From Patescibacteria group bacterium (GTDB lineage Bacteria; Patescibacteriota; Patescibacteriia; UM-FILTER-42-10): a DNA stretch of 64,000 bases. Of this stretch, positions 1 to 54,325 are shown in pieces. Below the pieces are notes generated by a model. It searched no databases and was not told where the DNA came from. It was given only the letters and a program-made list of their open reading frames with translations. Numbering within the stretch: the stretch's first letter is position 1; each line of letters opens with the position of its first letter. The stretch is from positions 11,858-75,857 of the forward strand of contig JBAYKW010000002.1 in the NCBI GenBank assembly GCA_041664365.1, in the 5' to 3' direction. Both the position numbers and the translations under genes were made by a program.

Positions 1-391
1 CAGCTCTCGCCATTCCGGCCTGAGCACGGACTCACCTTCGTCGGAGGCAAAGCAAATGCCGACTTCGCAGTGGCTCGAACAAGTGATCGACAGCGTCGCG
101 CATACTGTCGCGGCGCGAGTGTTCGATCCGCACGACGTCCCGCTTCTGGGACCGATTGCCGTACAGATCCACCATGTGGACGGCAATATCGTCACCGGGA
201 CGATCTGCTCCGCCGAGGAGCACGCGCCGGACATCGAGACGACCGGATCGCGTTTCACGACCGATGCGGAGCTCAAAGAGATCCGCATGGCTGTGTACTT
301 CCTGGTGGTCCAGGGTGAATCCTTCGTCACCAAGACTCGCGATGGGTCCATCCTATGGACCATCGGTCTCCCCGTTCCTTCGGAAGACTAG
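1..391 (+). CDS. C-terminal part of a GC-rich hypothetical protein; the gene begins upstream of the window
   Basis: The frame is open from position 2 with no upstream stop and runs in-frame into the listed 56..391 ORF. The segment is about 60% GC, unlike the backbone, and is followed by a hairpin plus T-run. No recognisable motif. Confidence 0.35.
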   Translation, partial: SSRHSGLSTDSPSSEAKQMPTSQWLEQVIDSVAHTVAARVFDPHDVPLLGPIAVQIHHVDGNIVTGTICSAEEHAPDIETTGSRFTTDAELKEIRMAVYFLVVQGESFVTKTRDGSILWTIGLPVPSED

Positions 392-394
392 TCC

Positions 395-440
395 CCGCCA
401 ATACATCTTTTATGGATTGAGGCGGTTTTTTTATTCCATT
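395..440 (+). terminator. rho-independent terminator
   Basis: CCGCC...GGCGG hairpin followed by TTTTTTTATT. The same GGCGGTTTTTTTATTC tail recurs after the next GC-rich gene at about 1760-1777. Confidence 0.5.
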
Positions 441-470
441 GACATTTATAAATATTCTGGTACAATCGTT
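439..470 (+). promoter_or_regulatory. sigma70-like promoter (TTGACA, 16-17 nt spacer, TACAAT) upstream of the glgC-like gene
   Basis: ccaTTGACAtttataaatattctggTACAATcg read directly. AT-rich, backbone-like signal driving a GC-rich gene. Confidence 0.4.
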
Positions 471-516
471 GCTCGCCCGTTCACACTCACTTTGTCCAAG
501 ACACGGAGGTAATTGT

Positions 517-1755: not shown

Positions 1756-1851
1756 TCAAATGGCGGTTTTTTTATTCATAAAAAATTTTATTGTGGATAA
1801 CTGTAATATTTATTAATAATTGATGATAAAAAAACTGTAATCTTAGCAGGT

Positions 1852-1880
1852 TTGACCGGTTTTTTAAAATATGGTAATAT
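1852..1880 (+). promoter_or_regulatory. sigma70-like promoter (TTGACC, 17 nt spacer, TAATAT) reading into the C/T-rich tract
   Basis: tttgaccggttttttaaaatatggtaatat read directly, with consensus-like spacing. Confidence 0.4.
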
Positions 1881-2035
1881 TGAATCCAACAAGAGCTGAG
1901 TTAGTTATTTGAAAAGAGAATATCGGGAAAGGAAACCGTGGTCTTTGGGGAGCGATCTTTGCCTTCATTGATTTGAAGTCAAAGACTGCCCCCCAACCAC
2001 CCAACCTCCTTCATGAGTCGGAACATCACATGTTC

Positions 2036-2184
2036 CACACCCCCCGCCTTCCCCCCCCACCCCCCAACCCCGCCCTCCTCACCCCTCCTGCCTTCACTCT
2101 TCCTCTCTTCCTCCTACCCTCTCCTCGCTCCTTCTCTACTCATCCCACCATCCATTCTCTTTTCACCCATCTCATTTCAGATGA
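2036..2184 (+). repeat. C/T-rich, G-depleted low-complexity tract of about 150 nt (top strand is almost only C and T, with sparse A)
   Basis: ccccccccaccccccaaccccgccctcctcacccctcctgccttcactcttcctctcttcctcctaccctctcctcgctccttctctact... read directly. It contains many CCTCC/CCTCCT motifs. Confidence 0.85.
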
Positions 2185-2266
2185 AATAGCTATTTTTTTT
2201 CAGCTCTTTTGTCGTATATGGAGAAAACAATCATTTCAGTCAGTTTAAACCCTATTAGTGCAATGC

Positions 2267-2294
2267 TTGACATCTCCTATAAATATGATATATT
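2267..2294 (+). promoter_or_regulatory. sigma70-like promoter (TTGACA, 16 nt spacer, TATATT) for the trpR-like gene
   Basis: gcTTGACAtctcctataaatatgaTATATTgacc read directly. Confidence 0.4.
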
Positions 2295-2336
2295 GACCTG
2301 TGCGCTTTGCTTTAGCCTAATAAAGCATGAATTTAA

Positions 2337-2666
2337 ATGGAAATGAACAAAAAGAACAGCAAGAAAACTGAAGAATTATACCAGGCCATGCTTTCCTTAA
2401 AAAACACCAAGGAAGCCGTGGATTTTTTTCGTGATTTGCTGACGGAAAAAGAAATTATTGAATTAGGCAACCGCTGGCGTGCCGCTCGGATGCTCAATCA
2501 GAATATTCCATACAGCAAGATCATTGAAGATACCGGACTGAGCTCAACTACAATTGCCCGGACTTCAAAATGGTTGAAAAAAAGCAAAGGTGGTTTTAGA
2601 CTTATTCTCCAAAGAATTAATACCCATCGACACAACTCTTCCGTTCCTGAGAAAGGGTTGTTTTGA
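2337..2666 (+). CDS. TrpR-like / YerC-YecD family small DNA-binding protein
   Basis: 109 aa. ELGNRWRAARMLNQNIPYSKIIEDTGLSSTTIARTSKWLK matches the Trp-repressor-like HTH fold of the YerC/YecD family. Backbone GC. Confidence 0.6.
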   Translation: MEMNKKNSKKTEELYQAMLSLKNTKEAVDFFRDLLTEKEIIELGNRWRAARMLNQNIPYSKIIEDTGLSSTTIARTSKWLKKSKGGFRLILQRINTHRHNSSVPEKGLF

Positions 2667-2687
2667 TATAGCAGAAAATATATAAAG

Positions 2688-2724
2688 CCAGCCCCTTCTC
2701 ACGGAGAGAAGGGGCTTTTGATTT
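2688..2724 (+). terminator. rho-independent terminator
   Basis: AGCCCCTTCTC-acgg-AGAGAAGGGGCT followed by TTTTGATTT. Confidence 0.6.
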
Positions 2725-2811
2725 ATCGAAAGCCTTCAGCTTGAGAGACTTTTGATTTCCCAAAAGTTAAAGCTTAAGCTGAATTGTTCATTCACAGTTC
2801 GGAGGTTTGTC

Positions 2812-3888
2812 ATGAAGACGTACCGACCCTGCGCCGGCGCGATTCCCGAGTCGATTGATACCCGCTACCAGGAGGCGCTGCAGACCAAAGGACTTCGGTA
2901 TGGCATTATCGAAGTCACCACCCGTTGTCAGTGTGCCTGTCCGGGGTGCTATATGGTGCGCCGCAATTTCTTGAACAAAAAGGAGATGTCCCTGTCAGAT
3001 GCAATCCGGATTCTGGATTTGTGCCGTGATTACCGCGGCGCGGAACTGGAAACGATGGACCTCTTAGGCGGGGAGCCGCTGTTGTGGCCGCACCTGCAGG
3101 AGTTCATTGAGGAGCTGCTGCGCCGCGGGATTCTGCCTTGGGTTTTCACCAACATGCTGGCGATCACGCCCGAGCTCGCGCGGTGGTTGCATGAGCACAA
3201 GGTGCATGTTACCGGCAAGCTGAACATCGATCCTTCCGATCCCGCGCAGTATCCGCTGCAGGCGGAGATGCTGGGTCGGGGGATGAATGTGGTGCGGCAA
3301 CTGCTTTCCGCGATCCGGATTTTTCAGGCGGCCGGGTATGAGGACCCACTGTTCCGTTTGCAGAACCTGATCCGCAAACAGAACCTGGAATTTGTGCCGG
3401 GTTACTACAGTTGGTGCCTTGCACAGAAGATCGGCACGGATCTGGAACTGATGGGTTCCGGCGAGCCGATCGGTCCTGACTACTGGCGGATTGCCCCTAA
3501 CCCTAAACAGCTGGCGGGTATGATCCGCAAGATCCAGGCGGTCCGCAAGGAATTCGGCCTGGCGGAAGCCGAGGTACTGATGCCGCACGTGTTCGGCTCC
3601 TGTCCTTTCTACGACAAGGGTCTTTACTTCGCGGCGGACGGGCACATCCGCGCCTGCTCCAACTCTACGGTCCAGCTTTCACAAACCGCCGATCCGGATC
3701 CGATCCGGAAAGCCTATGAGTCACCGCTGATCTGTAGCCGTCTAATGCTTTCGCAGAGTGCGGTTGGGGAACCCTGTGGCAGCTGCAGTAAGTGGGACAA
3801 GTGCCGTGGCGGATGCCGGGCGACGGTGGAAGGTACCGGCGATCCTTTCGGCGGGTACCCGCTATGCCCGGTGCCTTTTCTGGACTGA
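2812..3888 (+). CDS. radical SAM enzyme with a C-terminal SPASM domain (peptide- or protein-modifying maturase family)
   Basis: CX3CX2C cluster motif TTRCQCACPGCY near the N-terminus. C-terminal CGSCSKWDKCRGGC is a Cx2Cx5Cx3C SPASM signature, and there are additional upstream Cys. GGAGG RBS 7 nt before the ATG at 2812. About 60% GC. Confidence 0.7.
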   Translation: MKTYRPCAGAIPESIDTRYQEALQTKGLRYGIIEVTTRCQCACPGCYMVRRNFLNKKEMSLSDAIRILDLCRDYRGAELETMDLLGGEPLLWPHLQEFIEELLRRGILPWVFTNMLAITPELARWLHEHKVHVTGKLNIDPSDPAQYPLQAEMLGRGMNVVRQLLSAIRIFQAAGYEDPLFRLQNLIRKQNLEFVPGYYSWCLAQKIGTDLELMGSGEPIGPDYWRIAPNPKQLAGMIRKIQAVRKEFGLAEAEVLMPHVFGSCPFYDKGLYFAADGHIRACSNSTVQLSQTADPDPIRKAYESPLICSRLMLSQSAVGEPCGSCSKWDKCRGGCRATVEGTGDPFGGYPLCPVPFLD

Positions 3889-3959
3889 CCTTGTGACAAA
3901 AGGTTGGGGCGGAGATTAATTTCTTCGCTCCAACCGCTTTATTTTTTAAATTTAAAGAT

Positions 3960-4415
3960 ATGAGAAAAGATATTCTAAAAATTGCCAATATTAAATTCAA
4001 AGAACTGTCAAAAAAGTACGACGGATTTATCAATGTGGTTATTGATGATTGGCGGGGTTTTCGTTTTGTTTTTGACACGGAAGATGTCCGCAAATGTAAA
4101 AACGACTGCCAGAATTGCCCGTTATTTAAATTACTAAAAGATGAAAAATCAGGATTATTCTCCACAGGATTATACCGGGCAACTAAAGAAGATAAATTAC
4201 TTTTCGGTCCGCAAAATTTTTTAAACTGTAAAACCATTATGCAATATCAAACATGCTATTTGAATTTTTTACAGCAATGCCGGTCGGAGGCTGAAATTAA
4301 GCAGGAATTAGCATTGGTTAAATCAATGAAATTAATTTATTCCAAAGGAAATATTAAAAAAACGGAAGATTTGTTTAAAAAAGAAATATTGTCCAAATAT
4401 CTTGATTTTTTATAG
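3960..4415 (+). CDS. hypothetical 151-aa protein carrying a CX3CX2C motif (CKNDCQNC); possible truncated radical-SAM-like remnant
   Basis: Backbone-type, Lys-rich composition. The motif VRKCKNDCQNCPLF is read directly. Too short for a full radical SAM core. Confidence 0.4.
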   Translation: MRKDILKIANIKFKELSKKYDGFINVVIDDWRGFRFVFDTEDVRKCKNDCQNCPLFKLLKDEKSGLFSTGLYRATKEDKLLFGPQNFLNCKTIMQYQTCYLNFLQQCRSEAEIKQELALVKSMKLIYSKGNIKKTEDLFKKEILSKYLDFL

Positions 4416-4477
4416 GGTATTTGTTAAGGTAAATGACCGTTTTAGCTGTTCACTTTAGGCACGAGGAGGTATACATC

Positions 4478-5836
4478 GTGATCATCAAGCGTTACGCACT
4501 GCTTCCGATGCGAGAACTTTGGCTCCGGGAAGAGAGCAAGTTCGAGCACTGGCTGGATGTTGAGCTAGCGGTTCTGCGCGCACGCGAACATTTGGGGATG
4601 GCACCTAAAGGTGCGTATATGAGCGTCCTCAAGCATGCTGCGTTCACTGTGGACAGGATCGCGGAGATCGAGGCGGAAGTGGATCACGACCTGATCGCTT
4701 TCGTCACCAACGTCCGCGAGTCGCTCGAAGCGGCCGGTATCGGCCATTTGTGTTCGGAAATCCATAAGGAGATTACGAGCTACGACGTGGAGGATCCGGC
4801 GCTGATTCTGATGCTCCGCAAGGCGGTCCATCTGGACATCAACGCGCTGAGATCGCTGGAACAGTCCTTACGGAGGAAGGCGCAGGAACACCAGTGGACC
4901 TGGATGATCATGCGCACGCACGGACAGTTCGCCGAACCTTCCACCTTCGGCCATCTTCTGCTGGTGTTTGCCGAAGAAATCCGGCGATGCATCGTCAAGC
5001 TCGAGACTCCGATGAACACTGATCTGTCCGAGGGGAAGATCTCCGGCGCGGTCGGCAGTTTCGCCGGCATTAGGCCAGCCGTGGAGCAGATTGCGCTGGA
5101 AGTGCTGGGTTTGATGCCTGCCAAGGCGGAAACCCAGATCCTACAGCGTGACCGTCACGCTGCGCTACTCTGCACGTTGGCAGTCTGCGGAGGAGTGATC
5201 GAGCAGATCGCAAAGACCTTCTGGGTGATGATGCGCAGCGAGGTGCGCGAACTCCGTGAACCGCGCAAGCCGAAGCAGAAGGGTTCCTCGGCGATGCCGG
5301 GCAAGCGCAATCCGATCCTGACGGAACGGCTCATGGGCATGTCCCGTCTGCTCCGTGCGGATGCAATGTGTGCGCTGGAGAACATCGCCACTTTCGAGGG
5401 ACGGGAAATCTCCCAGTCCAGTGTGGAACGCCACATCTTCGCGCGGTCAACGACGCTCGTTCACTACATGGCCATTAAGCTGGCCGGAATGGTGGACAGT
5501 CTCGAAGTTTTTCCGGAGCAGATGCTTCATAACCTGAAGGAGGAGTCACTCGGAGTGTGGGCCGGACAGCGGGTCCGTCATGCACTGGAGGAGGCGGGGA
5601 CTCACCACGAAGTGGCCTACCGCTACATTCAGGCGTGTTCGTTCCAGGCCGAGGCCGAACGGACGCATCTGCGAGACGTACTGCGCAGAACGTTGATTTG
5701 GGATGTTGTGGAAGACAGCGATGACGATCGTAGCGCCGAGGATCGGCTGGGTCGGAATGGTCTCAGGGCATGCTTCGACCACGAAGCCTATGCCACGGCC
5801 GGCATCGAACACATCTTCTCCCGCCAGACGGCGTAG
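4478..5836 (+). CDS. purB: adenylosuccinate lyase-like enzyme (fumarate-lyase superfamily, PurB-type)
   Basis: N-terminus VIIKRYALLPMRELWLREESKFEHWLDVELAVLRA parallels the PurB N-terminus (MIERYxxPEMxxIW..E.KFxxWL.VE). Fumarate-lyase signature GSSAMPGKRNP. GAGGAGG RBS before the GTG at 4478; the ATG at 4433 is an alternative start. About 60% GC. Confidence 0.65.
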   Translation: MIIKRYALLPMRELWLREESKFEHWLDVELAVLRAREHLGMAPKGAYMSVLKHAAFTVDRIAEIEAEVDHDLIAFVTNVRESLEAAGIGHLCSEIHKEITSYDVEDPALILMLRKAVHLDINALRSLEQSLRRKAQEHQWTWMIMRTHGQFAEPSTFGHLLLVFAEEIRRCIVKLETPMNTDLSEGKISGAVGSFAGIRPAVEQIALEVLGLMPAKAETQILQRDRHAALLCTLAVCGGVIEQIAKTFWVMMRSEVRELREPRKPKQKGSSAMPGKRNPILTERLMGMSRLLRADAMCALENIATFEGREISQSSVERHIFARSTTLVHYMAIKLAGMVDSLEVFPEQMLHNLKEESLGVWAGQRVRHALEEAGTHHEVAYRYIQACSFQAEAERTHLRDVLRRTLIWDVVEDSDDDRSAEDRLGRNGLRACFDHEAYATAGIEHIFSRQTA

Positions 5837-5904
5837 TTTGCACATTTCTTGGGTTCCGGGATCTGATCACAGATCTTAATGGGCCCTTTTTTATTTGGTT
5901 GAGT

Positions 5905-5990
5905 TGAGGGGATAGGGTTTTCCGCCTGAGGCGGATCAGCCTTGGGCTGAAGGGGATAGGGGTTAGGGGATAGGGTTTGGAAACTAGCAA
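5905..5990 (+). repeat. G-rich telomere-like repeat block (GGGGATAGGG / TTAGGGG units) with an internal CCGCC-tga-GGCGG hairpin
   Basis: tgaggggatagggttttccgcctgaggcggatcagccttgggctgaaggggataggggttaggggatagggtttgg read directly. A related block lies at 30273-30317. Confidence 0.8.
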
Positions 5991-6189
5991 TTGGTAATCT
6001 CTAATTCTAAACTCTTTATTCTTAAAATAGGCTAAAGCTTTTTTCTACAACCAAACGTGTAACGTCGCTTATTTTCAGCCGATAAATATAAACGAGTATT
6101 GTATCGTTCCGTGTTTTATTTTATTAGGATTTTTTGGCTAATTATAAGTAGACTTTTTAATCTTCAAGAAAGGTGTATAATATAAATCC

Positions 6190-8127: not shown

Positions 8128-8166
8128 GTCAACCCCGTTAGAGTCAATAACTCTAACGGGGTCAAT
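8128..8166. promoter_or_regulatory. palindromic intergenic element CCCCGTTAGAG-N7-CTCTAACGGGG (copy 1 of 3), upstream of the ispH promoter
   Basis: ttgtcaaccccgttagagtcaataactctaacggggtcaa. Near-identical copies at 36366-36403 and 49710-49745. A TTGTTT-17-TATAAT promoter follows at about 8178-8206. Confidence 0.6.
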
Positions 8167-23897: not shown

Positions 23898-24366
23898 ATT
23901 TTTTGGGATTTTTTAAAAATTCTTTTTTACAACCCGAAGCGCAGAAATAATAAGCGGTTCTTTTATAATATCCGGAAAAAGCCGTGTGCCTTGGTAATAC
24001 TTTCATTTTGCAAACGGGGTCAATGAATTCCGGAACAGCCGGTAGGGCAGAGTGGTTAATTACCGTTTTTTCCTGTGTCCGGTCGGCAAGGATTCTTTGA
24101 ATGGAATCCAGCACCTTAATAAATTCGGGGTGGGAGATGCAATATTTTATTTCTTTGCCGTTCCGCTCAGTAACTACTACACCCTCGCGGCGCAGTACCT
24201 GCAGATGCTGACTGATGTTGGCCTGGCTGATTCCGGTCATTTTTTTCATTTCCGACACGGTCAGGCAGTGACTACGCAAAAGCTGCATTATTTCAATGCG
24301 TTTAGTGTTTTTTATCGCCTCGATTAATCGGGCGTATTGCGTGTAATTAATGTTAGACATATTCAT
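23890..24366 (-). CDS. ArsR-family HTH metalloregulator fused to a C-terminal YHS/TRASH copper-binding domain
   Basis: [33 protein letters not shown] followed by DPVCKMKV...YYFCASGC, which is YHS-like. First gene of the divergent cop operon. Confidence 0.65.
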
Positions 24367-24406
24367 AGTTTTGAATATATCATCACATTAAATCTCTGTC
24401 AAATGG

Positions 24407-24436
24407 GGTAGCTTGGGTGACGTCACCCAAGCTACC
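24407..24436. promoter_or_regulatory. perfect 30-bp palindrome (15-bp arms) in the divergent intergenic region between the cop regulator and the purA-like gene
   Basis: GGTAGCTTGGGTGAC|GTCACCCAAGCTACC read directly. A TTGACT-17-TAAGAT promoter for the purA-like gene follows at about 24445-24473. Confidence 0.6.
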
Positions 24437-24517
24437 CACTGCGTTTGACTCAATTCAGATGTTTTTGTAAGATGATAGACCGTTTTAGTGAGGATTTTCG
24501 GACCAGGGGAGGGTTAT

Positions 24518-25867
24518 ATGCCTATCGACACGATTTGTGGTCTCCAACGGGGAGACGAAGGCAAGGGCGCGATCGTTGATCGCAAACTGGCCTCAGGTAA
24601 GTACACCTGGAATGTCCGTTTCCAGGGAGGTGCCAACGCTGGCCACACTGTGAAGGCTGGTGGAAAGAAGTTGATTCTGCACCAAATCCCTTCTGGCGTC
24701 ATGCACGAGCGGGTCAGGCTGGGCCTCGGTCAGGGCATGATTATCGATCCGTTCGGTCTCCGCGATGAAGTCGAACAGCTTCGGGTTATGGACATCGATG
24801 CGACGGCGCGACTGTGTGTTTCTTCCGGTGCCAAGATCGTCTGTCCGTGGGACAAGCTCCTGGACGGCGCGATCGATCGCGTGCGAGCCAAGGCTATGGG
24901 CATGCAGGTCGCGGAGGGCGGCGGCGTCGGTACTACCAACCGCGGGATCGGTCCCGGCTATGCTAATGCGGTGTCACGGGACGGCATCACGGTGGCGCAG
25001 CTGGTCCGGCCGAACGTGCTCTTCAATCGGATCAAAGTCGTGGTCCCGGTGATCAACTGCATGATCCGCGGTGTGCGCCAGGAGCTGGATTTATCGGAAG
25101 AGCAGCTACCGGAGTACACTGTTTCCGGTGCGTTTGAACAGCTCGCTCCGATCGGCGAATGGATGTCGCTGATTGCGTATCCGCTGCATGAACTGCTGCG
25201 GGTTGCACTTATGGAAGGTGAATTCTTACTCGCAGAGGGCGGACAGGGTTATTTCCTGTCCAACGACTGCACTGTGAGCTATCCCAGCTGCACTTCCTCG
25301 ATCACGACGGCCAACGCCGTTTTCTCGGGGCTCGGACTCGAACTGCGAAGAAGCTGGATCGGTAGCACGATCGGCGTGGTCAAGGCGTACCAGACGGCAG
25401 TGGGTAATCATCCGATGCCCACCTACATCGGCAACGAGTACCAGGAGCGTATCCAGCGGATCGGTGGCGAAATCGGCGCGTCGACCGGCCGGATACGTGA
25501 CTGCTGCTGGCTGAACGGTTTGGAGCTTCGCGAGGCTGCTCAGTTTTGCGACGTGATCTACGTCACCAAGCTGGATGTGCTGTCCGGGATTCCGCTGATT
25601 CCGATCGCAACCGCCCTGCATCCTGACAACCATGCTCCGAATCATCCAGTGCTGACCGATCTCCCGCAAACCTGGGAGGAGTACATGCTCTGCCAGCCGA
25701 TCTACGGCATCAACGTGACCGGCTGGAACGAGGACATCTCCGGCATTCGCAGGATTGCCGACTTGCCGAGCAGTGCGCAGGAATACTTGGCTACGATTGC
25801 CAAGATTGCGTCCAGGATGGTCATCTGCGTCGGTGTCGGTCCTGAACGCGAGCAGTTCTGCGTTTAG
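24518..25867 (+). CDS. purA: adenylosuccinate synthetase family protein (PurA-like; substrate specificity not resolved)
   Basis: GLQRGDEGKGAIVD (P-loop, catalytic Asp), RFQGGANAGHTV (catalytic His retained, first His replaced by Ala), GTTNRGIGPGY, GASTGRIRDCCWLN, TKLDVL. GGGGAGGG RBS before the ATG at 24518. About 62% GC. Confidence 0.7.
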   Translation: MPIDTICGLQRGDEGKGAIVDRKLASGKYTWNVRFQGGANAGHTVKAGGKKLILHQIPSGVMHERVRLGLGQGMIIDPFGLRDEVEQLRVMDIDATARLCVSSGAKIVCPWDKLLDGAIDRVRAKAMGMQVAEGGGVGTTNRGIGPGYANAVSRDGITVAQLVRPNVLFNRIKVVVPVINCMIRGVRQELDLSEEQLPEYTVSGAFEQLAPIGEWMSLIAYPLHELLRVALMEGEFLLAEGGQGYFLSNDCTVSYPSCTSSITTANAVFSGLGLELRRSWIGSTIGVVKAYQTAVGNHPMPTYIGNEYQERIQRIGGEIGASTGRIRDCCWLNGLELREAAQFCDVIYVTKLDVLSGIPLIPIATALHPDNHAPNHPVLTDLPQTWEEYMLCQPIYGINVTGWNEDISGIRRIADLPSSAQEYLATIAKIASRMVICVGVGPEREQFCV

Positions 25868-26155
25868 CAGCTCTTTTGGGAGGTAGTGGGGAGTGTATGC
25901 ACAAGCATCCTTCCCATTTTTTTATTCAAAAGTATTCTTAACTGCCGAAAACTATAATTTATTTGGTTTCTGAAGATGCACTTTATGGGACTTTTTTAAA
26001 GCTATTTGACATTGAATTATGGATAGGAGTATTATAAATCCACGTAAACAAAAACCAAAAAAAATTAGAAACCTTCGCAGCTATGGGGTTATTTTTTTCC
26101 GCCCATTTTACAAAAATACGTTTAAAAATGTGAAAAGTGGGGAGTTTTGACAGAT

Positions 26156-30317: not shown

Positions 30318-30329
30318 TTGAAAACATAA

Positions 30330-30527
30330 TATTAAACTGGAATAGTACCAGGGAACACCGGTGTAAATCCGGGGCAGTCCCGCTACTGTAATCTCAGGGC
30401 ATTTTTTTAGAAAATGTACTGGGAAAGTCAGAATACTGGTATATTCAAAATTAATTCTTTCTCCGCGGATAGGGAAAGAGGTAAAACTGCCGATTTTGCC
30501 TTCCTGTCCTAGGAAGGTTTTTTAATA
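30330..30527 (+). ncRNA. cobalamin (AdoCbl) riboswitch with a terminator-type expression platform
   Basis: cAGGGAAcaccGGTGtAAATCCggggcagtcccGCTACTGTAA matches the conserved core and B12-box of the cobalamin riboswitch consensus. Downstream hairpin GCCTTCCTGTCCTAGGAAGG plus TTTTTT lies 30 nt before the 30557 gene. Confidence 0.7.
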
Positions 30528-31853: not shown

Positions 31854-33647
31854 ATGAATTCGTTCAACAAGTTCGGCCAAGCTCGGTGGTATGCGATGGT
31901 CTTCATCGGCGTGATTACCGCTGCGCAGGTGGTTAGGGGCAACTGGTTCGGTTTCGTGGAAGGTCTGTTGTCGATGGGAATCATGGCCGTCATGATGTGG
32001 GTGTGGCTGCCGATCTTCATCCGACAGCTGGCCGACCAGTACCTTTTCTTCTTGCGGGCGAAGGAAATGCGCGCCTACATGATTGAGAAGGACGGAAAGT
32101 TGGTCCGGCTCATCATCGCGGTACTGGCAAAGGACCGTCCGCGGTTCGAGGTGCTCAAGATGGAACAAGAAGCAAGGGGAATCCGGGTTGACCTGGTTGA
32201 CCCTTCGAGCTCCTTGTATTACATCGGAGTGCCTTGGAAGTTCAAGGCCAAGTTTTGGTTTGAGTATCCGGCGGACGAAACGTCTCCCGAATTGCATCCC
32301 CAGTACTCGATGATTCTTTCTGAAAGGACCATCGATTACCAAGCGCCCGAAGTGCCCACGGCGGACTTCATTGAGATCACTGCCAAGCTGGTGATCTCAT
32401 TGATTGTGGTGAATCCGCTCAAAGCAGTTTATGGCGTTAACCATTACATGGAGGCAGTGATCTTCCTGATCAACTCCAGGTGGCGTAGGGTTGCCACTAC
32501 TCTGCACTTCTTCTACTACGGAGAGGATGCAGAGGCGCCAAAGGATCTCAATACGGTGCTCTCCAGACTGGAGACACTAAAGAGAGATCCGGAAATCTAT
32601 CAGAAGGCTCACGGAGCACTGCTGGTGGATCTCTGGCTGGCCGGGCGCTGTCAGAAGTACAAGGTCGCTGTCGGGGAAGATGGCAATCCCAAAGCAATTG
32701 CTGACGGGAGGCCGGAACCTCGATACTGGAACGTCCAGGACTCCAAGGTAATGGATGGCACGGAGACTTTCGGAGGAAATGTCTACAACGTCTATGGAGA
32801 CTTTGAAGGCAGATTCTTCTATGTTCGCGAAGAAGCGGATGAAAGCCTCGTGCTGATGTGTGGTAAGGAAGGAGAATCCCCGATTTCATTCGTCGAAAGC
32901 GACCGTAGCAAGGTCGTGGTCAGACCGGAACAGCGCGTGCTGTTTCTGTTTACCAAGTCGGGAGATTCTTGGGATGGGGTCCGTGCCTACTTCAAGTACG
33001 GGATTCCCGCCGACAAGCCGGCTCGTCGGCTAGTCATACACTTCGGTGTCTTCCCGAAAGACGTCGAAATACAAGACATCGGCACCCAGCGCAATATCAA
33101 GGAGGCCCTGGAAAAGCCCGCTATTGCCATTGCCAATGCTCTTGCTGCCAGGCAAGAAGCAGAAGGAATGAAAGCGGTCAAGGTTCTTGAAGCAGAAGGG
33201 GAAAAGCAGGCCAAGATCCTTCAGGGTGAAGGTGAAGAGAAGCGTTTGTCCTCTGTGGGCGCAGGCGAGGGCACAGCGAAGCGCCTGGTTGGTGAAGGAG
33301 AAGGCGCGGCAGTGCTTGCGGTCCACAAGGGACACGCCGATGGTTTCGCCGCTCAAATGGCGGCGCTTGGAATCAAACCGGGCGAGGCGGCTGCCTTGTC
33401 TATGTTGAGTGCCGAAGCAGTGCGTCAAATGGCAATTTCTGCTAAGCAGCTCACTGTTATAGGGGCTGAAGGCATTAACAACCTATTTGGCGTTGTGCCG
33501 GCTCTTGCGCAGCTCTGGAACAGAGAAGGGAACACTCCCTCTGAAGCTGATGTGATCAAAGTATTGTCCGGCCTTAGCGTGGCTGAACGACAGTCCGTGT
33601 TCGATGCGTTGCCCAGAACCAATAGTGGTGAGGACAGCGTTTCCTAA
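31854..33647 (+). CDS. SPFH/band-7 domain protein with a flotillin-type C-terminal coiled/EA-repeat region and a central insertion of about 200 aa
   Basis: N-terminal TM helices. Band-7 block DFIEITAKLVISLIVVNPLKAVYGVNHYMEAVIFLINSRWRRVATT fits the SPFH pattern D..ka.y.v.ny..av..l..t.lR. The C-terminus (KEALEKPAIAIANALAARQEAEGMKAVKVLEAEGEKQAKIL...AAALSMLSAEAVRQMAISAKQLTVIGAEG) resembles flotillin/YqiK tails. AAGGAG RBS. About 60% GC. Confidence 0.6.
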   Translation: MNSFNKFGQARWYAMVFIGVITAAQVVRGNWFGFVEGLLSMGIMAVMMWVWLPIFIRQLADQYLFFLRAKEMRAYMIEKDGKLVRLIIAVLAKDRPRFEVLKMEQEARGIRVDLVDPSSSLYYIGVPWKFKAKFWFEYPADETSPELHPQYSMILSERTIDYQAPEVPTADFIEITAKLVISLIVVNPLKAVYGVNHYMEAVIFLINSRWRRVATTLHFFYYGEDAEAPKDLNTVLSRLETLKRDPEIYQKAHGALLVDLWLAGRCQKYKVAVGEDGNPKAIADGRPEPRYWNVQDSKVMDGTETFGGNVYNVYGDFEGRFFYVREEADESLVLMCGKEGESPISFVESDRSKVVVRPEQRVLFLFTKSGDSWDGVRAYFKYGIPADKPARRLVIHFGVFPKDVEIQDIGTQRNIKEALEKPAIAIANALAARQEAEGMKAVKVLEAEGEKQAKILQGEGEEKRLSSVGAGEGTAKRLVGEGEGAAVLAVHKGHADGFAAQMAALGIKPGEAAALSMLSAEAVRQMAISAKQLTVIGAEGINNLFGVVPALAQLWNREGNTPSEADVIKVLSGLSVAERQSVFDALPRTNSGEDSVS

Positions 33648-33664
33648 ATTCGTGGAGGTGTGTC

Positions 33665-34768
33665 GTGGACATTCTGCTTCTCATAGTTCTTCTGCTGGCA
33701 TTTGGTGCGTATTCCCTGAATTCCTGGTTCAGGAAACGCAACGGCACCAGCACTCAACGCAGAGTAACGAGTAGTTCGAGACTGCTCTTCCCAACCATCG
33801 CGCTCATCGTGATCGCGGTGATCGGACACTACGTCTTTCACTGGAAGGTGGGTAGCGCCATCTTCCTCATCATCCTGACTGCTGCGGTGGTCGGTGGTAT
33901 CTGGTGGTTCCGGCGCAAACCGGCCTACTCCCGTTTCGGTGGTAAGCCGTTCGGTACGTTCGTCGGTAACAATATCAAACTCATCGGATGGCTCGTGTTC
34001 CACGTGGCCTTCTGGTGCGTGGTCGCAAACATGGACGGCAACTGGGACTACGTCAAGGAGTGGTGGTGGGGTAAGTACAGCTTGTTTCTGTACCCCATGC
34101 ACTTGATCTACATCACGCGCGGCAGCTTTCCGGACGTGGTCACAGGGAAGTACACTTTCCCGAACAGGATCACGAAGTGGGCATTCACATTCCTGTTCAT
34201 TCTGATGCTGTATGCACCGTTCTGCCACGTTACTCAGCGCGAGTCGATCCTGAGCCGATACGCGGGCTTCAACGAGTCCGGTTCGGCGCACTACAACATT
34301 CCGGGTCGGCAGTCGCCTGACTCGGACGAACTTCAGCGCGGGCAGTTCAATATCAACGTCACGCCGGAAGGACGTGACGCGAACGGTCTCGTGAAGAAGA
34401 TGAGGGTTGGCACTTTGCCGGCCGGTACCACGTGGATCCAGACCTGGAATATCAGTGGTCGGGTCTACACCAAATATCTGATCTATCAGTGGATCGGCGA
34501 CCGGCTGAAAGTCTACGACAAGATCCTCGTTGACAACAATCAGTTGGCTTCGCCGGACACCGATGGCGATGGCTTCTTGACCGTCAGCCAGAGTCCGTTG
34601 ATGCTCATGCTGGGTGCCGACGGGAAGACGGGGTGGAAGATCGTCAATTCCGAGCGGTACGAATTCGCACCCCTGGCTCAGGATACCGAGGTATTTGTCC
34701 TGATCTACTCCGATCAGGAGAGACCCGGTACTGGAGGCGTCAGCTTCCATCTGCGGTCAGGAATCTGA
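33665..34768 (+). CDS. GC-rich polytopic membrane protein (about 6 TM) with a C-terminal soluble beta-rich domain; operon partner of the SPFH protein
   Basis: Hydrophobic helices (LLLIVLLLAFGAY, LLFPTIALIVIAVIGHYVF, AIFLIILTAAVVGGIWWF, IGWLVFHVAFWCVV...). Begins 17 bp after the upstream stop. A strong terminator follows. Confidence 0.5.
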   Translation: MDILLLIVLLLAFGAYSLNSWFRKRNGTSTQRRVTSSSRLLFPTIALIVIAVIGHYVFHWKVGSAIFLIILTAAVVGGIWWFRRKPAYSRFGGKPFGTFVGNNIKLIGWLVFHVAFWCVVANMDGNWDYVKEWWWGKYSLFLYPMHLIYITRGSFPDVVTGKYTFPNRITKWAFTFLFILMLYAPFCHVTQRESILSRYAGFNESGSAHYNIPGRQSPDSDELQRGQFNINVTPEGRDANGLVKKMRVGTLPAGTTWIQTWNISGRVYTKYLIYQWIGDRLKVYDKILVDNNQLASPDTDGDGFLTVSQSPLMLMLGADGKTGWKIVNSERYEFAPLAQDTEVFVLIYSDQERPGTGGVSFHLRSGI

Positions 34769-34805
34769 TATGTACATTTCCTGGGTGGCCCCATGCACAG
34801 TGTCT

Positions 34806-34862
34806 TACAAACGCTCGTGCATGGACCACCCTTTTTTCTTACAAAAAAAACTGTTTTCAGTG
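34806..34862 (+). terminator. rho-independent terminator
   Basis: GGTGGCCCCATGCAC...GTGCATGGACCACC long hairpin followed by CTTTTTTCTT. Confidence 0.6.
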
Positions 34863-34997
34863 CATTAATTGAATTTTGTTTGAATTAAATATTGGGGCCC
34901 CCGACGAGCGTAGCTCGGTGGGGAAAGGGGTATAGACTCGAAACTAAAATAATCGAGTTTATAACTCGATTATGACAGTGGAGAGTCTAATGACCCG

Positions 34998-35074
34998 TGG
35001 TAGCAGGGGAGAGGTTCGAACTCTCGACCTCGGGCTTATGAGTCCCGCGCTCTAACCAGCTGAGCTACCCTGCC
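34998..35074 (-). tRNA. tRNA-Met (CAT), elongator-type
   Basis: Minus-strand cloverleaf GGCAGGG-TA-GCTC.AGCTGGTTA.GAGC...CTCATAA...GAGAG.TTCGAAC.CTCTC-CCCTGCT-A-CCA. G1-U72 pairs, CCA encoded. Confidence 0.75.
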
Positions 35075-35377
35075 GCGTCCTTTTTATGCTTCAGGTTTCG
35101 TACTTCCCGCTTTGCGGGAACTACTTCACCTTTCGCATAAAAACTCCTTTCCTCGCAAAGGCGTGCTCGTCGAGCTTACGCTCTCCTGCGCTACTCCTTT
35201 GCTCGGGTTTTTATTCTTTATATTTTATGACTTGTGTGCTTCTATAACACTCGGTTGGTTTTGAGTTTAATTGGGGCCCCCGACGAGCAAAGCTCGGTGG
35301 GGAAAGGGGCATAATGCGTAGGGTGAAGTGAATGCAATAATTTGCAGACACGGAACCCGAAGCATTTAAATGACCCT

Positions 35378-35453
35378 TGGTTGCGGGGGGCGGACTCGAA
35401 CCGCCGACCTCCAGGTTATGAGCCTGACGAGCTGACCACTGCTCTACCCCGCG
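35378..35453 (-). tRNA. tRNA-Met (CAT), initiator-like (C1xA72 mismatch)
   Basis: CGCGGGG-TA-GAGC.AGTGGTCA.GCTC...CAGG.CTCATAA.CCTG...GGCGG.TTCGAGT.CCGCC-CCCCGCA-A-CCA. An unpaired C1/A72 and GG/CC pairs next to the anticodon loop suggest tRNA-fMet. Confidence 0.65.
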
Positions 35454-35818
35454 TCGAGTGATCGCGAACTGCGACCTACATTTGTCCGGAACTGATGTTC
35501 CGAACAAATTCCGATCTCCGTTCGCGTCCCTCTCTCCTCGCAAAGGCGTGCTCGTCGAGCTCACGCTCTCCTGCGCTACTCCTTTGCTCGGGTTTTATAT
35601 TCTATGCCTTATGCGCTTCCAATTTACTCGTTAGAATTTTTATTGTTAATATGCTACCGCAGTTTAGCCTAAATATATTATTTTGGCAAGTTTCATAGTG
35701 TATATCGTAAAATGGGGTCCCCGACGAGCAAAGCTCGGTGTGGAGAGGGACACAAATGTGAAAGGTGAAGTGAATGCAATAATTTGCAGACACGGAACCT
35801 AAAACATTTGATGACCCG

Positions 35819-35905
35819 TGGTACCGGGAGAGAGACTTGAACTCTCATGATGTTGCCATCACTGGATTTTGAGTCCAGCGCGTCTGCCAGTTCCGCCATC
35901 CCGGC
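35819..35905 (-). tRNA. tRNA-Leu (CAA) with a long variable arm
   Basis: GCCGGGA-TG-GCGG.AACTGGCAGA.CGC...CTGGA.CTCAAAA.TCCAG-TGATGGCAACATCATG-AGAG.TTCAAGT.CTCT-CTCCCGGT-A-CCA read from the minus strand. Confidence 0.75.
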
Positions 35906-35912
35906 TTGATTT
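35888..35912. repeat. 25-bp direct repeat DR1 (the tRNA-Leu 5' end plus 7 nt of upstream flank)
   Basis: cagttccgccatcccggcttgattt. Identical to 36280-36304 except that the preceding base differs. Confidence 0.8.
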
Positions 35913-35913
35913 A

Positions 35914-36168
35914 CTATATGTTCGATAATGTGTTTCTGAGCAATGCTCTTAATGATTTCTTTCCTTTACTGGTTTTAAAGTAGCGTTCTCTTTTTTCAGC
36001 ATCTTCTTTATTATTGAACATTTCATAGAAAATAATCTTAACAGGTAATCTATGTTTAGTAAAAGTGCTTTTACCCTGCCTATGTTCTTTTAAACGTCTT
36101 TCAAGGTTATTAGTAATACCTGCATAAAGTTGCTTATTGGATAAAAGCAAAATATAAACAGAAAACAT
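35914..36168 (-). CDS. small GIY-YIG nuclease-domain protein (UPF0213/YhbQ-like, 84 aa)
   Basis: MFSVYILLLSNKQLYAGITNNLERRLKEHRQGKSTFTKHRLPVKIIFYEMFNNKEDAEKRERYFK carries the GIY-YIG core (VYIL...YAGIT.NLERRL.EH...E). AT-rich. Lies between the two 25-bp direct repeats. Confidence 0.65.
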   Translation of the reverse strand: MFSVYILLLSNKQLYAGITNNLERRLKEHRQGKSTFTKHRLPVKIIFYEMFNNKEDAEKRERYFKTSKGKKSLRALLRNTLSNI

Positions 36169-36279
36169 GTTGATATTGTATTACGGATTATTAAATAACA
36201 ATGATTAGTAAATAGTAATTTCCGCCATCTCGTACCACACAGGGTACGTGATAGCCATGAACCCTTTAGTGGTTCATGG

Positions 36280-36304
36280 CAGTTCCGCCATCCCGGCTTG
36301 ATTT
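36280..36304. repeat. 25-bp direct repeat DR2 (an orphan copy of the tRNA-Leu 5' end), preceded by a perfect hairpin GCCATGAACC-ctttagt-GGTTCATGGC
   Basis: ggttcatggCAGTTCCGCCATCCCGGCTTGATTTgaaaca read directly. Confidence 0.8.
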
Positions 36305-36365
36305 GAAACAGATATTACAAATATCTTTATCTCATACACTAGTCTAAATGGAATACAGCTTTCCT

Positions 36366-36403
36366 GTCAACCTCGTTAGAGAAAAACTCTCTAACGGGGT
36401 CAA
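36366..36403. promoter_or_regulatory. palindromic intergenic element (copy 2) upstream of the parA promoter
   Basis: gtcaacctcgttagagaaaaactctctaacggggtcaa. A TATAAT sits at about 36451 before parA. Confidence 0.55.
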
Positions 36404-36481
36404 CTGGTTTAATTGGTAGTGGCAATATCTGTAAAAATTGGTATAATATAAAAGTTATATAACAATAAAGAGTATCTTTTA

Positions 36482-49939: not shown

Positions 49940-50200
49940 GCCTAGTGAACAGTAGATGTAGTGCCCAGCGTGCTATTTATAAGTCGGTTAAGAGTATTGT
50001 ATCCTCCTTAACAATACCCTTTGCCATCAGACTTATAGATAGCACCCTGGGTATTATGACATATTGGGTCCGTTGGCATCTCCGATGCCAAACTGAAGAA
50101 GCGATGGGGCTCTCCGCAAGGAAGCCCGTTTCCGAAAGGAATCCCTTGGCGAGCATCGACCAATCAGTTTCTCGCTCACGCGAGACGGGCCCACCTAAGT
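49940..50200 (+). ncRNA. candidate structured RNA (GC-rich, [11 protein letters not shown] leader or ncRNA) upstream of the tRNA cluster; identity unresolved
   Basis: Perfect hairpin TTGGCATC-tccg-GATGCCAA, and an imperfect long hairpin with an apical GNRA loop (CGCAAGGAAGCCCG-TTCC-GAAA-GGAA-TCCCTTGGCG). The overlapping ORF 49945..50247 runs into a tRNA and is not credible as coding. Confidence 0.3.
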
Positions 50201-50206
50201 CTTGTT

Positions 50207-50292: not shown

Positions 50293-50367
50293 GTCCCGTT
50301 AGCTTAATGGCAGAGCAGCTGACATCTCAATCAGCCGATCGGGGTTCGAGTCCTCGACGGGGCACCA
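50293..50367 (+). tRNA. tRNA-like gene with an 8-nt anticodon loop (CATCTCAA); anticodon unresolved (CTC or TCT possible)
   Basis: GTCCCGT-TA-GCTT.AATGGCA.GAGC-A-GCTGA.CATCTCAA.TCAGC-CGAT-CGGGG.TTCGAGT.CCTCG-ACGGGGC-A-CCA. The cloverleaf is otherwise good. Confidence 0.5.
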
Positions 50368-50460: not shown

Positions 50461-50476
50461 TTTGGTCTCACTGGTT

Positions 50477-50547
50477 GCCAGCGTAGTTCAGCTTGAAGAA
50501 CACTTGATCTGTTTTCAAGAGTTCGTCAAACTCCTCCGCTGGCACCA
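50477..50547 (+). other. tRNA-like fragment or pseudogene (71 nt, ends in CCA; no regular T-arm)
   Basis: GCCAGCG-TA-GTTC.AGCTTGAA.GAAC-A-CTTGA.TCTGTTT.TCAAG-...-CGCTGGC-A-CCA. The acceptor, D-arm and anticodon arm are tRNA-like, but the region between anticodon arm and acceptor is too short. Confidence 0.35.
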
Positions 50548-50554
50548 GAAAATC

Positions 50555-54030: not shown

Positions 54031-54325
54031 TTGACGGGTTAGAAATACAAAATTATTGATTCATATCGCTAATATTATATAATATTTTCAACAAAAAATC
54101 TACTACAATAATTAATACGTAATCGGCCTGATTAAGATTTCATCCGAGGGGCTTGAAATATTACTTTCTTTGTGTTACAATAAGGCTACTTCGTGTGCTA
54201 TCTCCTTTATTTACAGGGGTTCGTAGCTCTCGCCCGCTTACGTCTGTGCGCAAGCGATGGCGACGGGCGGCTGGTTATATGCCTTTCGGCAGGCAGTGAG
54301 CACTATCCACACATCTGTCCACCGC

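Follow-up and report, generated by a model that had tools for sequence, protein, structure and literature searches.

What are the repeated sequences that bracket three tRNA genes in a Patescibacteria genome: pieces of precursor RNA, DNA elements that settle beside tRNA genes, or the debris of past duplications? The locus lies in a 64-kb stretch from an uncultured Patescibacteria (candidate phyla radiation, CPR) bacterium, referred to here as the window, which represents ~6% of a genome; all sequences compared with it are metagenome assemblies. CPR bacteria have very small genomes and a reduced RNA-processing machinery, and to our knowledge the maturation of their tRNAs is largely unknown. The tRNA flanks of this locus are composed of two types of structured module, named H and D in this study. 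These are a lineage-spread, mirror-arranged pair of module families beside tRNA genes, uncatalogued in Rfam and most likely part of the pre-tRNA. The reading ranked first, held tentatively and with somewhat less than even confidence, is that the flanks are cis-acting structured leader and trailer RNA of the pre-tRNA assembled from the two reusable modules; a DNA-level inverted-repeat element ranks second, as a serious rival that we nevertheless consider unlikely.

Mirrored modules around three tRNA genes

ARAGORN and Rfam agree on three minus-strand tRNAs in the block: an elongator-type tRNA-Met, a second tRNA-Met, and a tRNA-Leu. The second tRNA-Met looks like an initiator (tRNA-iMet) because of its C1xA72 mismatch, as in bacterial initiators, but its anticodon stem has only two of the three usual G-C pairs. 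GGGTCAT lies immediately 3' of the CCA in all three. The surrounding repeats comprise D1 (44 nt), with three copies (34891-34934, 35270-35313, and 35711-35754), the second and third being 93% and 80% identical to the first; D2 (65 nt), with two copies that are 97% identical (35147-35211 and 35532-35596); and D4 (55 nt), with two copies that are 89% identical and follow the initiator-like tRNA and the tRNA-Leu (35313-35367 and 35755-35809). Spacing between repeat copies is 379-441 nt. No further copy of the D1 or D2 core is present in the window at <=3 mismatches, and dinucleotide shuffles give an expectation of 0 matches to these cores, confirming that the repeats flanking the three tRNAs are real and not due to chance.

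The first-pass annotation of this DNA, which had described three tRNAs with conserved repeated flanks, is thus borne out in outline. It placed a 57-nt palindrome before two of the tRNAs; this element does precede tRNA-Met and the initiator-like tRNA-Met, but is 65 nt long. It also gave each tRNA a conserved trailer; its 3' hairpin, D1, does follow all three, while the trailer hairpin of copy 1 (34933-34989) shares the shape of those of copies 2 and 3 but not their sequence. Alignment reveals a point missed at that stage, that the leaders are inverted copies of the trailers.

The H module comprises an outer stem, a 3x3 internal loop, a 4-bp helix, a 3x3 (or 2x2) loop, an inner stem, and a small loop. 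This shape is common to the five window copies despite three unrelated sequences (L1, T2, and T3; L2; T1). Internal loops of H leaders are purine-rich (GAA/GAA, GGA/GCA, GGA/GUA), and the trailers carry the complementary pyrimidines. The D module consists of GGGGNCCCC, a stem, an optional insert (AGKRGCG, a small hairpin, GAGYACG), the returning stem, and GGGGARAGGGRCAC, and ends in GGGGARAGG. D1 and D2 form one family, which was recognised through copies in contig L219: D2 and a form termed 'type B' are full D modules, and D1, read on the plus strand, is a minimal D with a triloop. The features of the cluster are as follows.

34891-34934, minus strand: D1 copy 1, a minimal D in trailer (antisense) orientation; CCCCACCGAGC-TAC-GCTCGTCGGGGGCCCC on the tRNA strand
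34930-34997, minus strand: T1, H-type trailer hairpin of tRNA-Met; sequence unlike T2 and T3, same shape (fold, terminator scan)
34998-35074, minus strand: tRNA-Met (CAT), elongator type, last gene of the cluster (ARAGORN; Rfam RF00005, 65.2 bits)
35081-35143, minus strand: L1, H-type leader hairpin of tRNA-Met; GAA/GAA 3x3 loops around the 4-bp helix
35147-35211, minus strand: D2 copy 1, a full D oriented as a leader; GCAAAGG/CCUUUGC outer stem and GNRA-capped inner hairpin, GAGC-GUAA-GCUC
35270-35313, minus strand: D1 copy 2, trailer of the initiator-like tRNA (repeat search, fold)
35313-35367, minus strand: T2, H-type trailer hairpin, the GTGAAGTGAATGCAATAATTTGCAGACACGGAACC block of the first-pass annotation; purine-loop form on the plus strand
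35378-35453, minus strand: initiator-like tRNA-Met (CAT), with the C1xA72 mismatch (ARAGORN, Rfam)
35464-35525, minus strand: L2, H-type leader of the initiator-like tRNA; second sequence family, same shape, two sense-strand G.U pairs
35532-35596, minus strand: D2 copy 2; inner loop GUGA
35661-35689, minus strand: promoter-like TTGCCA-17-TAAACT within the Leu-to-iMet spacer, at its AT-rich core; a consensus match only, its sequence kept in the related contig L210
35711-35754, minus strand: D1 copy 3, trailer of tRNA-Leu; 25-nt core absent at the orthologous L210 site
35755-35809, minus strand: T3, H-type trailer hairpin of tRNA-Leu; two compensatory pair changes relative to T2
35819-35905, minus strand: tRNA-Leu (CAA) (ARAGORN, Rfam)

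Leaders follow the order D-H-tRNA, and trailers consist of the same modules reverse-complemented, H and then minimal D. The modules abut the mature tRNA ends exactly, the leader H hairpin ending ~6 nt before the tRNA 5' end and the trailer H hairpin starting 1-2 nt after CCA. On alignment of leaders (sense) with trailers (antisense), L1 is a close inverted homologue of T2 and T3, and the 3' half of D2 matches the reverse complement of D1 (CGACGAGC...GGAAAGG). Since leaders mirror trailers, each tRNA sits between inverted repeats of ~100 nt or, equivalently, each inter-tRNA spacer is a long imperfect palindrome about an AT-rich core. Across all copies identified in the window and elsewhere (~10 H and ~13 D), modules read 5' to 3' toward the tRNA from either side, without exception.

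The apical 11-bp stem of T1 is followed by UUUUAGUUU and is terminator-like; in a terminator scan this apex (34973-34949) is the sole such site on the minus strand, at the end of the cluster, a placement that counts for the pre-tRNA reading. D1 itself was rejected as an intrinsic terminator, as it is followed by GCCCCAAU.. and no U-tract, leaving the T1 apex (34949-34973) as the only fit. Promoter-like consensus sites are not more numerous than expected from shuffles. Public assemblies made independently for this organism (ENA ERZ27249449 and Logan SRR6484324) both have contigs that break inside the tRNA block, at window positions ~35016, 35420-35545, and 36271, which fits repeats or strain variation there.

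Folding, covariation, and distribution of the modules

Every module folds far better than its shuffled counterparts (z -4.3 to -9.4), as do whole units and spacers (z -6.5 to -8.7). Seven H copies from two genomes are 95% paired in the consensus structure, with 14 of 18 pairs changing on both sides and a covariation score reached by 0 of 500 shuffles; slid controls are only 26-43% paired. For D, seven full copies from three genomes are 83% paired, 7 of 15 pairs change on both sides, and again none of 500 shuffles attains the score. Both consensus structures were derived from the very sequences scored, with few independent copies, and covariance-model E-values are rough. The inner loop of D is a GNRA tetraloop in four copies (GUAA, GUGA, GCAA, GAAA). 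Strand preference is marked in H: RNAfold predictions for the five wobble-bearing hairpins (four leaders and T1) place all nine G.U pairs on the sense strand, with no such pair in the antisense folds, and folding in sense gives leader H hairpins 7-13 kcal/mol of extra stability. The restriction of leader G.U pairs to the sense strand, together with the GNRA inner loops of D2, favours the pre-tRNA reading.

Structure also extends between modules. The best fold of the iMet-to-Met spacer is one large branched hairpin, in which T2 (5' arm) and L1 (3' arm) form 12 bp with each other, so that the UUC loops become paired to GAA. In both spacers the pyrimidine run after T pairs with the purine run before L, and the two spacers show a long-range compensatory difference (CCCUCUCC:GGAGAGAGGG versus CCCCUUUCC:GGAAAGG). 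Pairing within a unit is short (GGAAAGG:CCUUUCC and CGACGAGC:GCUCGUCG) and features in the minimum free energy fold of unit 1, not unit 2; pairing across a whole spacer has the better support. A long leader:trailer duplex enclosing each tRNA was set aside as unlikely, the L and T hairpins of one unit not being complementary.

We infer that the three genes are transcribed as one unit and that the flanks have a processing role, possibly involving an RNase III-like enzyme. Transcription of this precursor would probably begin at 36341-36370, where a promoter-like site lies, perhaps aided by a second, internal promoter within the Leu-to-iMet spacer, and would stop at the terminator-like T1 apex. 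Each inter-tRNA spacer would fold into a compact multi-hairpin domain whose base places the 3' end of one tRNA beside the 5' end of the next. These domains may direct or protect endonucleolytic separation, with RNase P acting at the 5' ends, the hairpins cut by an RNase III-like or other activity, and the 3' ends then trimmed to the encoded CCA; alternatively, they may stabilise the precursor. The copies within the cluster would have arisen by local duplication and inverted duplication, and would then have been homogenised in each lineage.

Related genomes provide independent views of the modules. In L210, a 91% relative, the Leu-to-iMet spacer is orthologous (80% identity) and retains D2 and L2, and in the counterpart of L2 (La) one inner-stem pair has changed from G-C to A-U, a compensatory substitution. 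L210 cleanly lacks the 25-nt D1 core; the indel is flanked by CC(CC)A repeats on both sides, which are also present in other phyla and may belong to the element. Ahead of T3 in L210, only 18 nt of the tRNA-Leu 3' end survive as a relic. This T3 has accumulated non-compensatory changes and scores 26.9 bits with the H covariance model, compared with 60-68 for other H copies, and this decay of a trailer whose tRNA is only a relic counts for the pre-tRNA reading. L210 also contains the second leader type, 'type B', in two copies that are each followed by an H hairpin (Lb, Lc). Between close relatives, module content varies strongly, one having D2 and the other 'type B'.

The H covariance model, built from the seven H hairpins of the window and L210, detects nothing further in the window or L200-L213, and three copies in further Patescibacteria contigs that were reached via homologues of a neighbouring GIY-YIG nuclease gene. 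An H leader in L216 lies 10 nt upstream of a tRNA-Gly, with a short CCGAGC...GAGCAAGGA hairpin before it and GGACGCG and then the tRNA after it, as in window unit 1; an rve integrase is encoded 1.3 kb from this copy. In L219, an antisense-strand H trailer lies 7 nt after a tRNA-Leu(TAG), with two D modules; the third copy, in sense and also in L219, closes the module array described below. The suggestion of the first-pass annotation that the flanks are a structured leader or trailer, or a tRNA-linked repeat, thus holds up, given z scores of -4 to -9, compensatory changes, and copies in L210, L216, and L219. The same annotation would have settled for mere tandem duplication had the flanks lacked conservation beyond the locus and covariation; this fails because the modules are conserved elsewhere and covary.

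Several observations weigh against a pre-tRNA role. Trailer modules are 2-6 kcal/mol more stable on the antisense strand and the D1 internal loop pairs better (G.U) on the plus strand, in keeping with the rule that each module is more stable on the strand that reads toward its tRNA. The mirror symmetry of the trailers is not obviously needed by an RNA acting in sense only, D1 copy 1 lies downstream of the putative terminator, and the D1 core, which comes and goes as one distinct unit of 25 nt, resembles a mobile or DNA-level feature more closely. Palindromic DNA repeats can maintain covariation without RNA function, and independent copies are few. The modules are patchily distributed, being absent from the other tRNA loci of the window and from L200, L211, L214, L215, and L220. 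At L219 11863-12215 (plus strand) a D-D-D-H array has no detected tRNA after it: three full D modules in tandem lead into an H hairpin, after which come GACGCG, a short GC hairpin, and a U-run, with no Rfam match. It may be a stand-alone structured RNA made from the same modules, or a leader that has lost its tRNA. Finally, a near-identical hairpin of 30-45 nt is found in unrelated phyla, away from tRNAs.

A further proposal, that the block arrived together with an adjoining foreign SPFH island, is not supported. The ParA protein encoded beside the cluster is identical to that of a 'Patescibacteria group bacterium' metagenome-assembled genome (MAG; NCBI), its nearest named relatives being Magasanikbacteria, Buchananbacteria, and Falkowbacteria (~70% identity), and the bacterial genes present include ParAB, DprA, TopA, Mfd, and RelA. 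Groundwater contigs L200-L209 (84% ParA identity) preserve the order DUF6580, 610-aa protein, 323-aa protein, tRNA-Met, tRNA-iMet, tRNA-Leu, parA, parB. The 610-aa protein of L200 is 35% identical to a 637-aa open reading frame (ORF) at the same position in the window, and its region is likewise GC-elevated (0.49 versus 0.41 for the whole locus). L200 tRNA spacers are GC-rich and structured, yet contain no H or D module, whereas L210 has the modules and, in place of the island, genes for tRNA-Val, signal peptidase, and HisRS. This marks the tRNA cluster as native, with modules that have no link to the island. The SPFH assignment itself is borderline, with a Band_7 match of 23.1 bits (cut-off 23.6) restricted to residues 196-256 of the 637-aa ORF, and the Band_7 match of the L200 homologue is 'faint'.

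A GC-rich segment (33644-34768) holds overlapping candidate ORFs of 367-368 aa on both strands, 33665-34768 (plus) and 33644-34750 (minus), of which public gene calls took the minus-strand frame. No Pfam family matches either frame, and neither resembles the syntenic 323-aa gene of L200. A canonical plus-strand terminator is located at ~34790-34860. More patches of 52-58% GC occur at window positions 1-6000 and 24000-26000, in a genome of ~42% GC.

GC-rich flanks of ~120-170 nt also accompany other tRNA operons (window 50060-50206 and 54205-54325, plus strand; L200 9141-9290, minus strand) and are unrelated in sequence to the H and D modules. In shuffle tests, the window tRNA-Glu leader (z = -4.3) and an L200 trailer (z = -5.7) are structured, and a tRNA-Val leader shows no excess (z = -0.04). 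The two structured flanks count, as a general pattern, for the pre-tRNA reading. A tRNA of unassigned identity is called by ARAGORN at window 50293-50367 (plus strand), its anticodon being four bases long (tctc), with an Rfam tRNA score of 52.6 bits. It lies within a Glu / ? / Arg / Pro cluster, and a tRNA-like remnant occupies the 95-nt gap preceding tRNA-Pro (50461-50554).

DNA-level alternatives and tRNA-gene turnover

The alternative that survives best, which we judge unlikely but take seriously, regards H and D as palindromes like those of miniature inverted-repeat transposable elements (MITEs) or repetitive extragenic palindromic (REP) sequences, or as sites for a recombinase or structure-specific nuclease, with RNA structure as a by-product. 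Modules would have been inserted or copied beside tRNAs in fixed polarity, maybe guided by the dyad symmetry of the acceptor stem, yielding tRNA cassettes. The exceptionless polarity, the strand preference of each copy, the clean 25-nt indel of the D1 core between CC(CC)A flanks, the variable module content of close relatives, and the breakage of two assemblies within the block speak in its favor, and so do D1-like dispersed intergenic repeats in other phyla and the position of the locus at a hot spot of tRNA-targeting GIY-YIG elements (both described below). Pure RNA signals do not usually show so strict a mirror arrangement, which may point to movement or exchange of tRNA genes at the DNA level. 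Against this, apart from the one array, neither the 64-kb window nor ~180 kb of related sequence has copies beyond tRNA flanks, and no transposase, integrase, or REP-associated tyrosine transposase (RAYT) appears in gene lists near the window locus. Sense-only G.U pairs in leaders, GNRA loops, and exact abutment of mature tRNA ends also count against it, and a sequence-specific DNA-binding protein would not need shape to be kept across differing sequence families. The modules do not look like MITE or REP dispersed repeats proper, since searches of the window (~6% of a genome) and of relatives give no extra copies apart from tRNA flanks and the one array.

The D1-like hairpins of other phyla were identified by an exact-pattern scan for the D1 core over one genome per species, plus metagenome contigs. 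Matches were mostly due to chance, in coding DNA of high-GC genomes, but three groups (Acidobacteriota, Myxococcota, and one Clostridia MAG) have intergenic hairpins that agree with D1 at every position over 30 nt, loop included. In ~9 Acidobacteriota MAGs the hairpin forms the apex of a palindromic repeat of ~150 nt, and Chondromyces apiculatus has four D1-like copies just after stop codons. Metagenome contigs add further copies of the Acidobacteriota and Myxococcota types.

D1-like hairpin, Acidobacteriota type: L021, L069, L075, L078, L082, L096, L105, L108, L132, L148, L151, L153
D1-like hairpin, Myxococcota type: L043, L046, L051, L110, L138, L139, L147, L170, L171
D1-like hairpin, Clostridia MAG L019: 9-54, 573-618, 3766-3811

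The cross-phylum consensus is CCCCACCGAGC-NNN-GCTCGTCGGGG-N-CCCC with a conserved 2x2 internal loop, and similarity is limited to 30-45 nt. Two copies in L019 lie within an inverted, degenerate tRNA-Met pseudogene beside tRNA-Met fragments. The third has ~42 nt in common with the window D1, including the CCUCUCC and CCAAU flanks, and a compensatory change from GAGC/GCUC to AAGC/GCUU. The 3' strand of the hairpin (GCTCGTCGGG) equals the D-stem and anticodon-stem segment of bacterial initiator tRNA (E. coli tRNA-fMet), and the D1-like hairpin may therefore be tRNA-derived. Such an origin would explain neither the half that is shared yet unlike tRNA nor the conserved 2x2 internal loop; across phyla the hairpin may derive from tRNA-fMet, have been horizontally transferred, or be convergent. 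A D1-core covariance model detects no diverged extra copies in the window or its relatives; the D1 core has 0 matches in viral contigs, BLAST of D1 against plasmids and phages gives one chance coding match only, and a metagenome scan for GGGTCAT plus D1, the tRNA-linked form of the trailer, gives 0 matches.

A second kind of element, outside the repeat, lies immediately upstream of tRNA-Leu.

35914-36168, minus strand: 84-aa GIY-YIG nuclease ORF (PF01541, E = 2.4e-16, 60.2 bits against a cut-off of 22.6)
36225-36304, minus strand: copy of the first ~18 nt of tRNA-Leu with 7 nt upstream (D5, 36277-36304), then two hairpins
35914-36304, minus strand: whole GIY-YIG locus of the window; counterparts at L214 3880-4348, L215 3300-3981, L216 2765-3209, L219 4690-5128, and L220 2115-2548

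The window ORF ends 8 nt upstream of tRNA-Leu and is preceded by two conserved hairpins (~36255-36279 and 36225-36254). In all six Patescibacteria lineages examined the GIY-YIG gene is upstream of, and co-oriented with, a tRNA-Leu, at a distance of 0-8 nt (235 nt in L215); the homologues are 70-77% identical, and the anticodons of the linked tRNAs (CAA, TAA twice, CAG, TAG, GAG) represent all five. Upstream of the gene, L214, L215, L216, L219, and L220 each carry a copy of the first ~18 nt of their own tRNA-Leu and the same two hairpins. The first hairpin, CCATGAACC-ACTAAAG-GGTTCATGG, shows compensatory stem variants around a constant ACUAAAG loop, and the second is variable; neither has an Rfam match. 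From its sequence and placement, the GIY-YIG unit looks like a mobile or homing element that targets tRNA genes. A group I intron was rejected, as there is no RF00028 match and the downstream tRNA-Leu is complete. Between this unit and parA, a TTGACA promoter-like site is overlapped by a palindrome, TGTCAACC(C/T)CGTTAGAG ... CTCTAACGGGGTCAA, which has two window copies (8133-8161 and 36363-36407); the latter, at the promoter-like site, may be an operator.

Rearranged tRNA sequences are frequent at these loci. At L215 3300-3900 a unit of tRNA 5' fragment plus two hairpins occurs three times around the GIY-YIG gene, and at L214 3010-3340 the same two hairpins precede repeated tRNA-Gly 3'-end fragments and a second GIY-YIG ORF of 96 aa. 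At L200 9367-9690 (minus strand) a GIY-YIG ORF upstream of tRNA-iMet, not in the gene table, runs into the tRNA and stops at the anticodon-loop TAA, with a scrambled copy of the tRNA-iMet 5' half upstream of it. At L210 2950-3130 (minus strand) a different tRNA-Leu(CAA) is nested between a 5' relic (GCCGGGATGG) and the 18-nt 3' relic (GTCTCTCTCCCGGTACCA) of the window-type gene, an apparent replacement of a tRNA gene by insertion. The elongator tRNA-Met of the L210 contig is cut off after 15 nt. From the nested replacement, the duplicated tRNA ends, and the GIY-YIG linkage, tRNA genes appear to be active targets of mobile elements, and these loci are recombination hot spots, a possible explanation of module copying.

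It is tempting to speculate that H and D are cis-elements of an undescribed Patescibacteria system, in which tRNA cassettes are bounded by mirror repeats on which a structure-specific enzyme acts, as single-stranded DNA or as RNA, although we regard this as rather improbable. The enzyme might be one of the small GIY-YIG nucleases whose genes show tight linkage to tRNA genes in these genomes. The minimal D would then belong to the family shared with Acidobacteriota, Myxococcota, and Clostridia, derived from or mimicking the initiator D-arm and anticodon stem. Such a system, if real, would provide a mechanism for the replacement and shuffling of tRNA genes in reduced genomes, and a new class of nucleic-acid motif recognised across phyla.

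More doubtful still is the notion that the flanks are scars of tRNA-gene-targeting elements (GIY-YIG or others) and double-strand-break repair, their tRNA fragments decayed to hairpins, with D1 as a relic of the initiator D-arm and anticodon-stem 5' strand (GAGC..GCTCGTCGGG). The D1 core does have GAGC-loop-GCTCGTCGGG in common with bacterial initiator tRNA (E. coli tRNA-fMet and that of the window); the L019 hairpin clearly lies in an inverted tRNA-Met pseudogene, and partial tRNA duplications abound at these loci. The likeness of D1 to tRNA is restricted to ~14 nt of initiator type, and RF00005 has no match to D1, D2, L, or T at E <= 10, on which ground a tRNA pseudogene was rejected. Scars would lack compensatory changes, GNRA loops, and a shape conserved across genomes; H modules are not tRNA-like, and the D stems of L219 (ATTTC/GAAAT and GTAAATC/GATTTAC) are unrelated to tRNA.

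A recent simple tandem duplication of one tRNA-plus-flank unit, its copies without function of their own, would suit the identity of the D2 copies (97%) and of D1 copies 1 and 2 (93%) and the 379-441-nt spacings, but is refuted by the three tRNA identities (class I Met, initiator, class II Leu), leaders that are reverse-complemented trailers, differing sequences with the same shape in L1/L2 and T1/T2, and modules beside other tRNAs elsewhere, and we consider it highly improbable. The earlier proposal that the tRNAs were duplicated as units with their flanks is not supported, given the differing tRNA identities, the inversion of leaders relative to trailers, modules beside unrelated tRNAs elsewhere (Gly, Leu-TAG), and the 25-nt D1 core indel.

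Comparison with known families and systems

Rfam 15 identifies only tRNAs and an adenosylcobalamin (AdoCbl) riboswitch in the window, and between 34700 and 36500 nothing but tRNAs rises above noise at E <= 10. Likewise, only tRNAs are found in L200, L210, and L211, the L219 D array, and the Acidobacteriota, Myxococcota, and Clostridia loci. The riboswitch (57.3 bits; 30324-30487, plus strand) is upstream of DUF4430 and DUF6580 genes and comes after genes for class II ribonucleotide reductase, NrdR, and CobA/CobO. A literature search returned nothing relevant on the D1 string or on CPR tRNA leader, RNase III, or RNase P topics. Among further candidates, an archaeal bulge-helix-bulge splicing motif was rejected given the symmetric 3x3 loops on both strands and the bacterial organism, and a parS site, a 5' end like that of transfer-messenger RNA, and a CRISPR repeat were considered and rejected. 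L1 and T2 (antisense) read ATG CGA AAG GTG AAG TAG with GGAG before it; this leader mini-ORF is judged a by-product of stem conservation, since it is missing from L2, La, and Lb. The modules are concrete candidates for CPR tRNA processing or stability signals, and the two covariance models can be used on all CPR genomes.

Like REP sequences, bacterial interspersed mosaic elements (BIMEs), and MITEs, the modules are intergenic imperfect palindromes in either orientation, with presence or absence of the D1 core and dispersed kin in Acidobacteriota and Myxococcota. They differ in being confined to tRNA flanks within the fragment, with fixed polarity, strand-biased wobble pairs, and GNRA loops, and with no RAYT or transposase seen. 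In the E. coli tyrT operon, 178-bp repeat units each contain a tRNA 3' end and are plain direct repeats from unequal crossing-over. Shared with tyrT are tRNA-associated repeats and partial tRNA copies in trailers, and the GIY-YIG-associated repeats of L215 are similar; H and D, in contrast, are mirrored hairpin modules common to different tRNAs and genomes. Integron attC sites are also imperfect palindromes of 55-70 nt that keep shape over sequence and have defined unpaired positions. An attC identity was rejected, as the outer stems (ATGC/GCAT, GCGAAC/GTTCGC, TAGACTC/GAGTCTA) lack R''/R' (RYYYAAC/GTTRRRY) boxes and the extrahelical-base pattern, no integrase is nearby, and the cargo is a tRNA and not a promoterless ORF.

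For the neighbouring nuclease, the closest parallel is phage T4 SegB (PMC2330249), also a free-standing GIY-YIG gene among tRNA genes and tied to their inheritance. The predicted window protein differs in its 84-aa length, with a catalytic domain only, and in its position directly upstream of tRNA-Leu in many cellular (Patescibacteria) genomes, and the element brings a duplicated tRNA 5' end and a two-hairpin motif. For the modules themselves, among the closest known systems are the processing stems of rRNA and tRNA operons, substrates of RNase III and RNase P that include those separating polycistronic pre-tRNAs (PMC7049720). In contrast to these, mostly local hairpins are predicted in the window, with no conserved long leader:trailer helix for each tRNA, and its modules are mirrored, have the 3x3 / 4-bp / 3x3 pattern, and are not in Rfam. 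As in rRNA and tRNA operons, GC-rich structure abuts the mature ends, and the spacers are predicted to fold neighbouring 3' and 5' ends together, with structure conserved over sequence.

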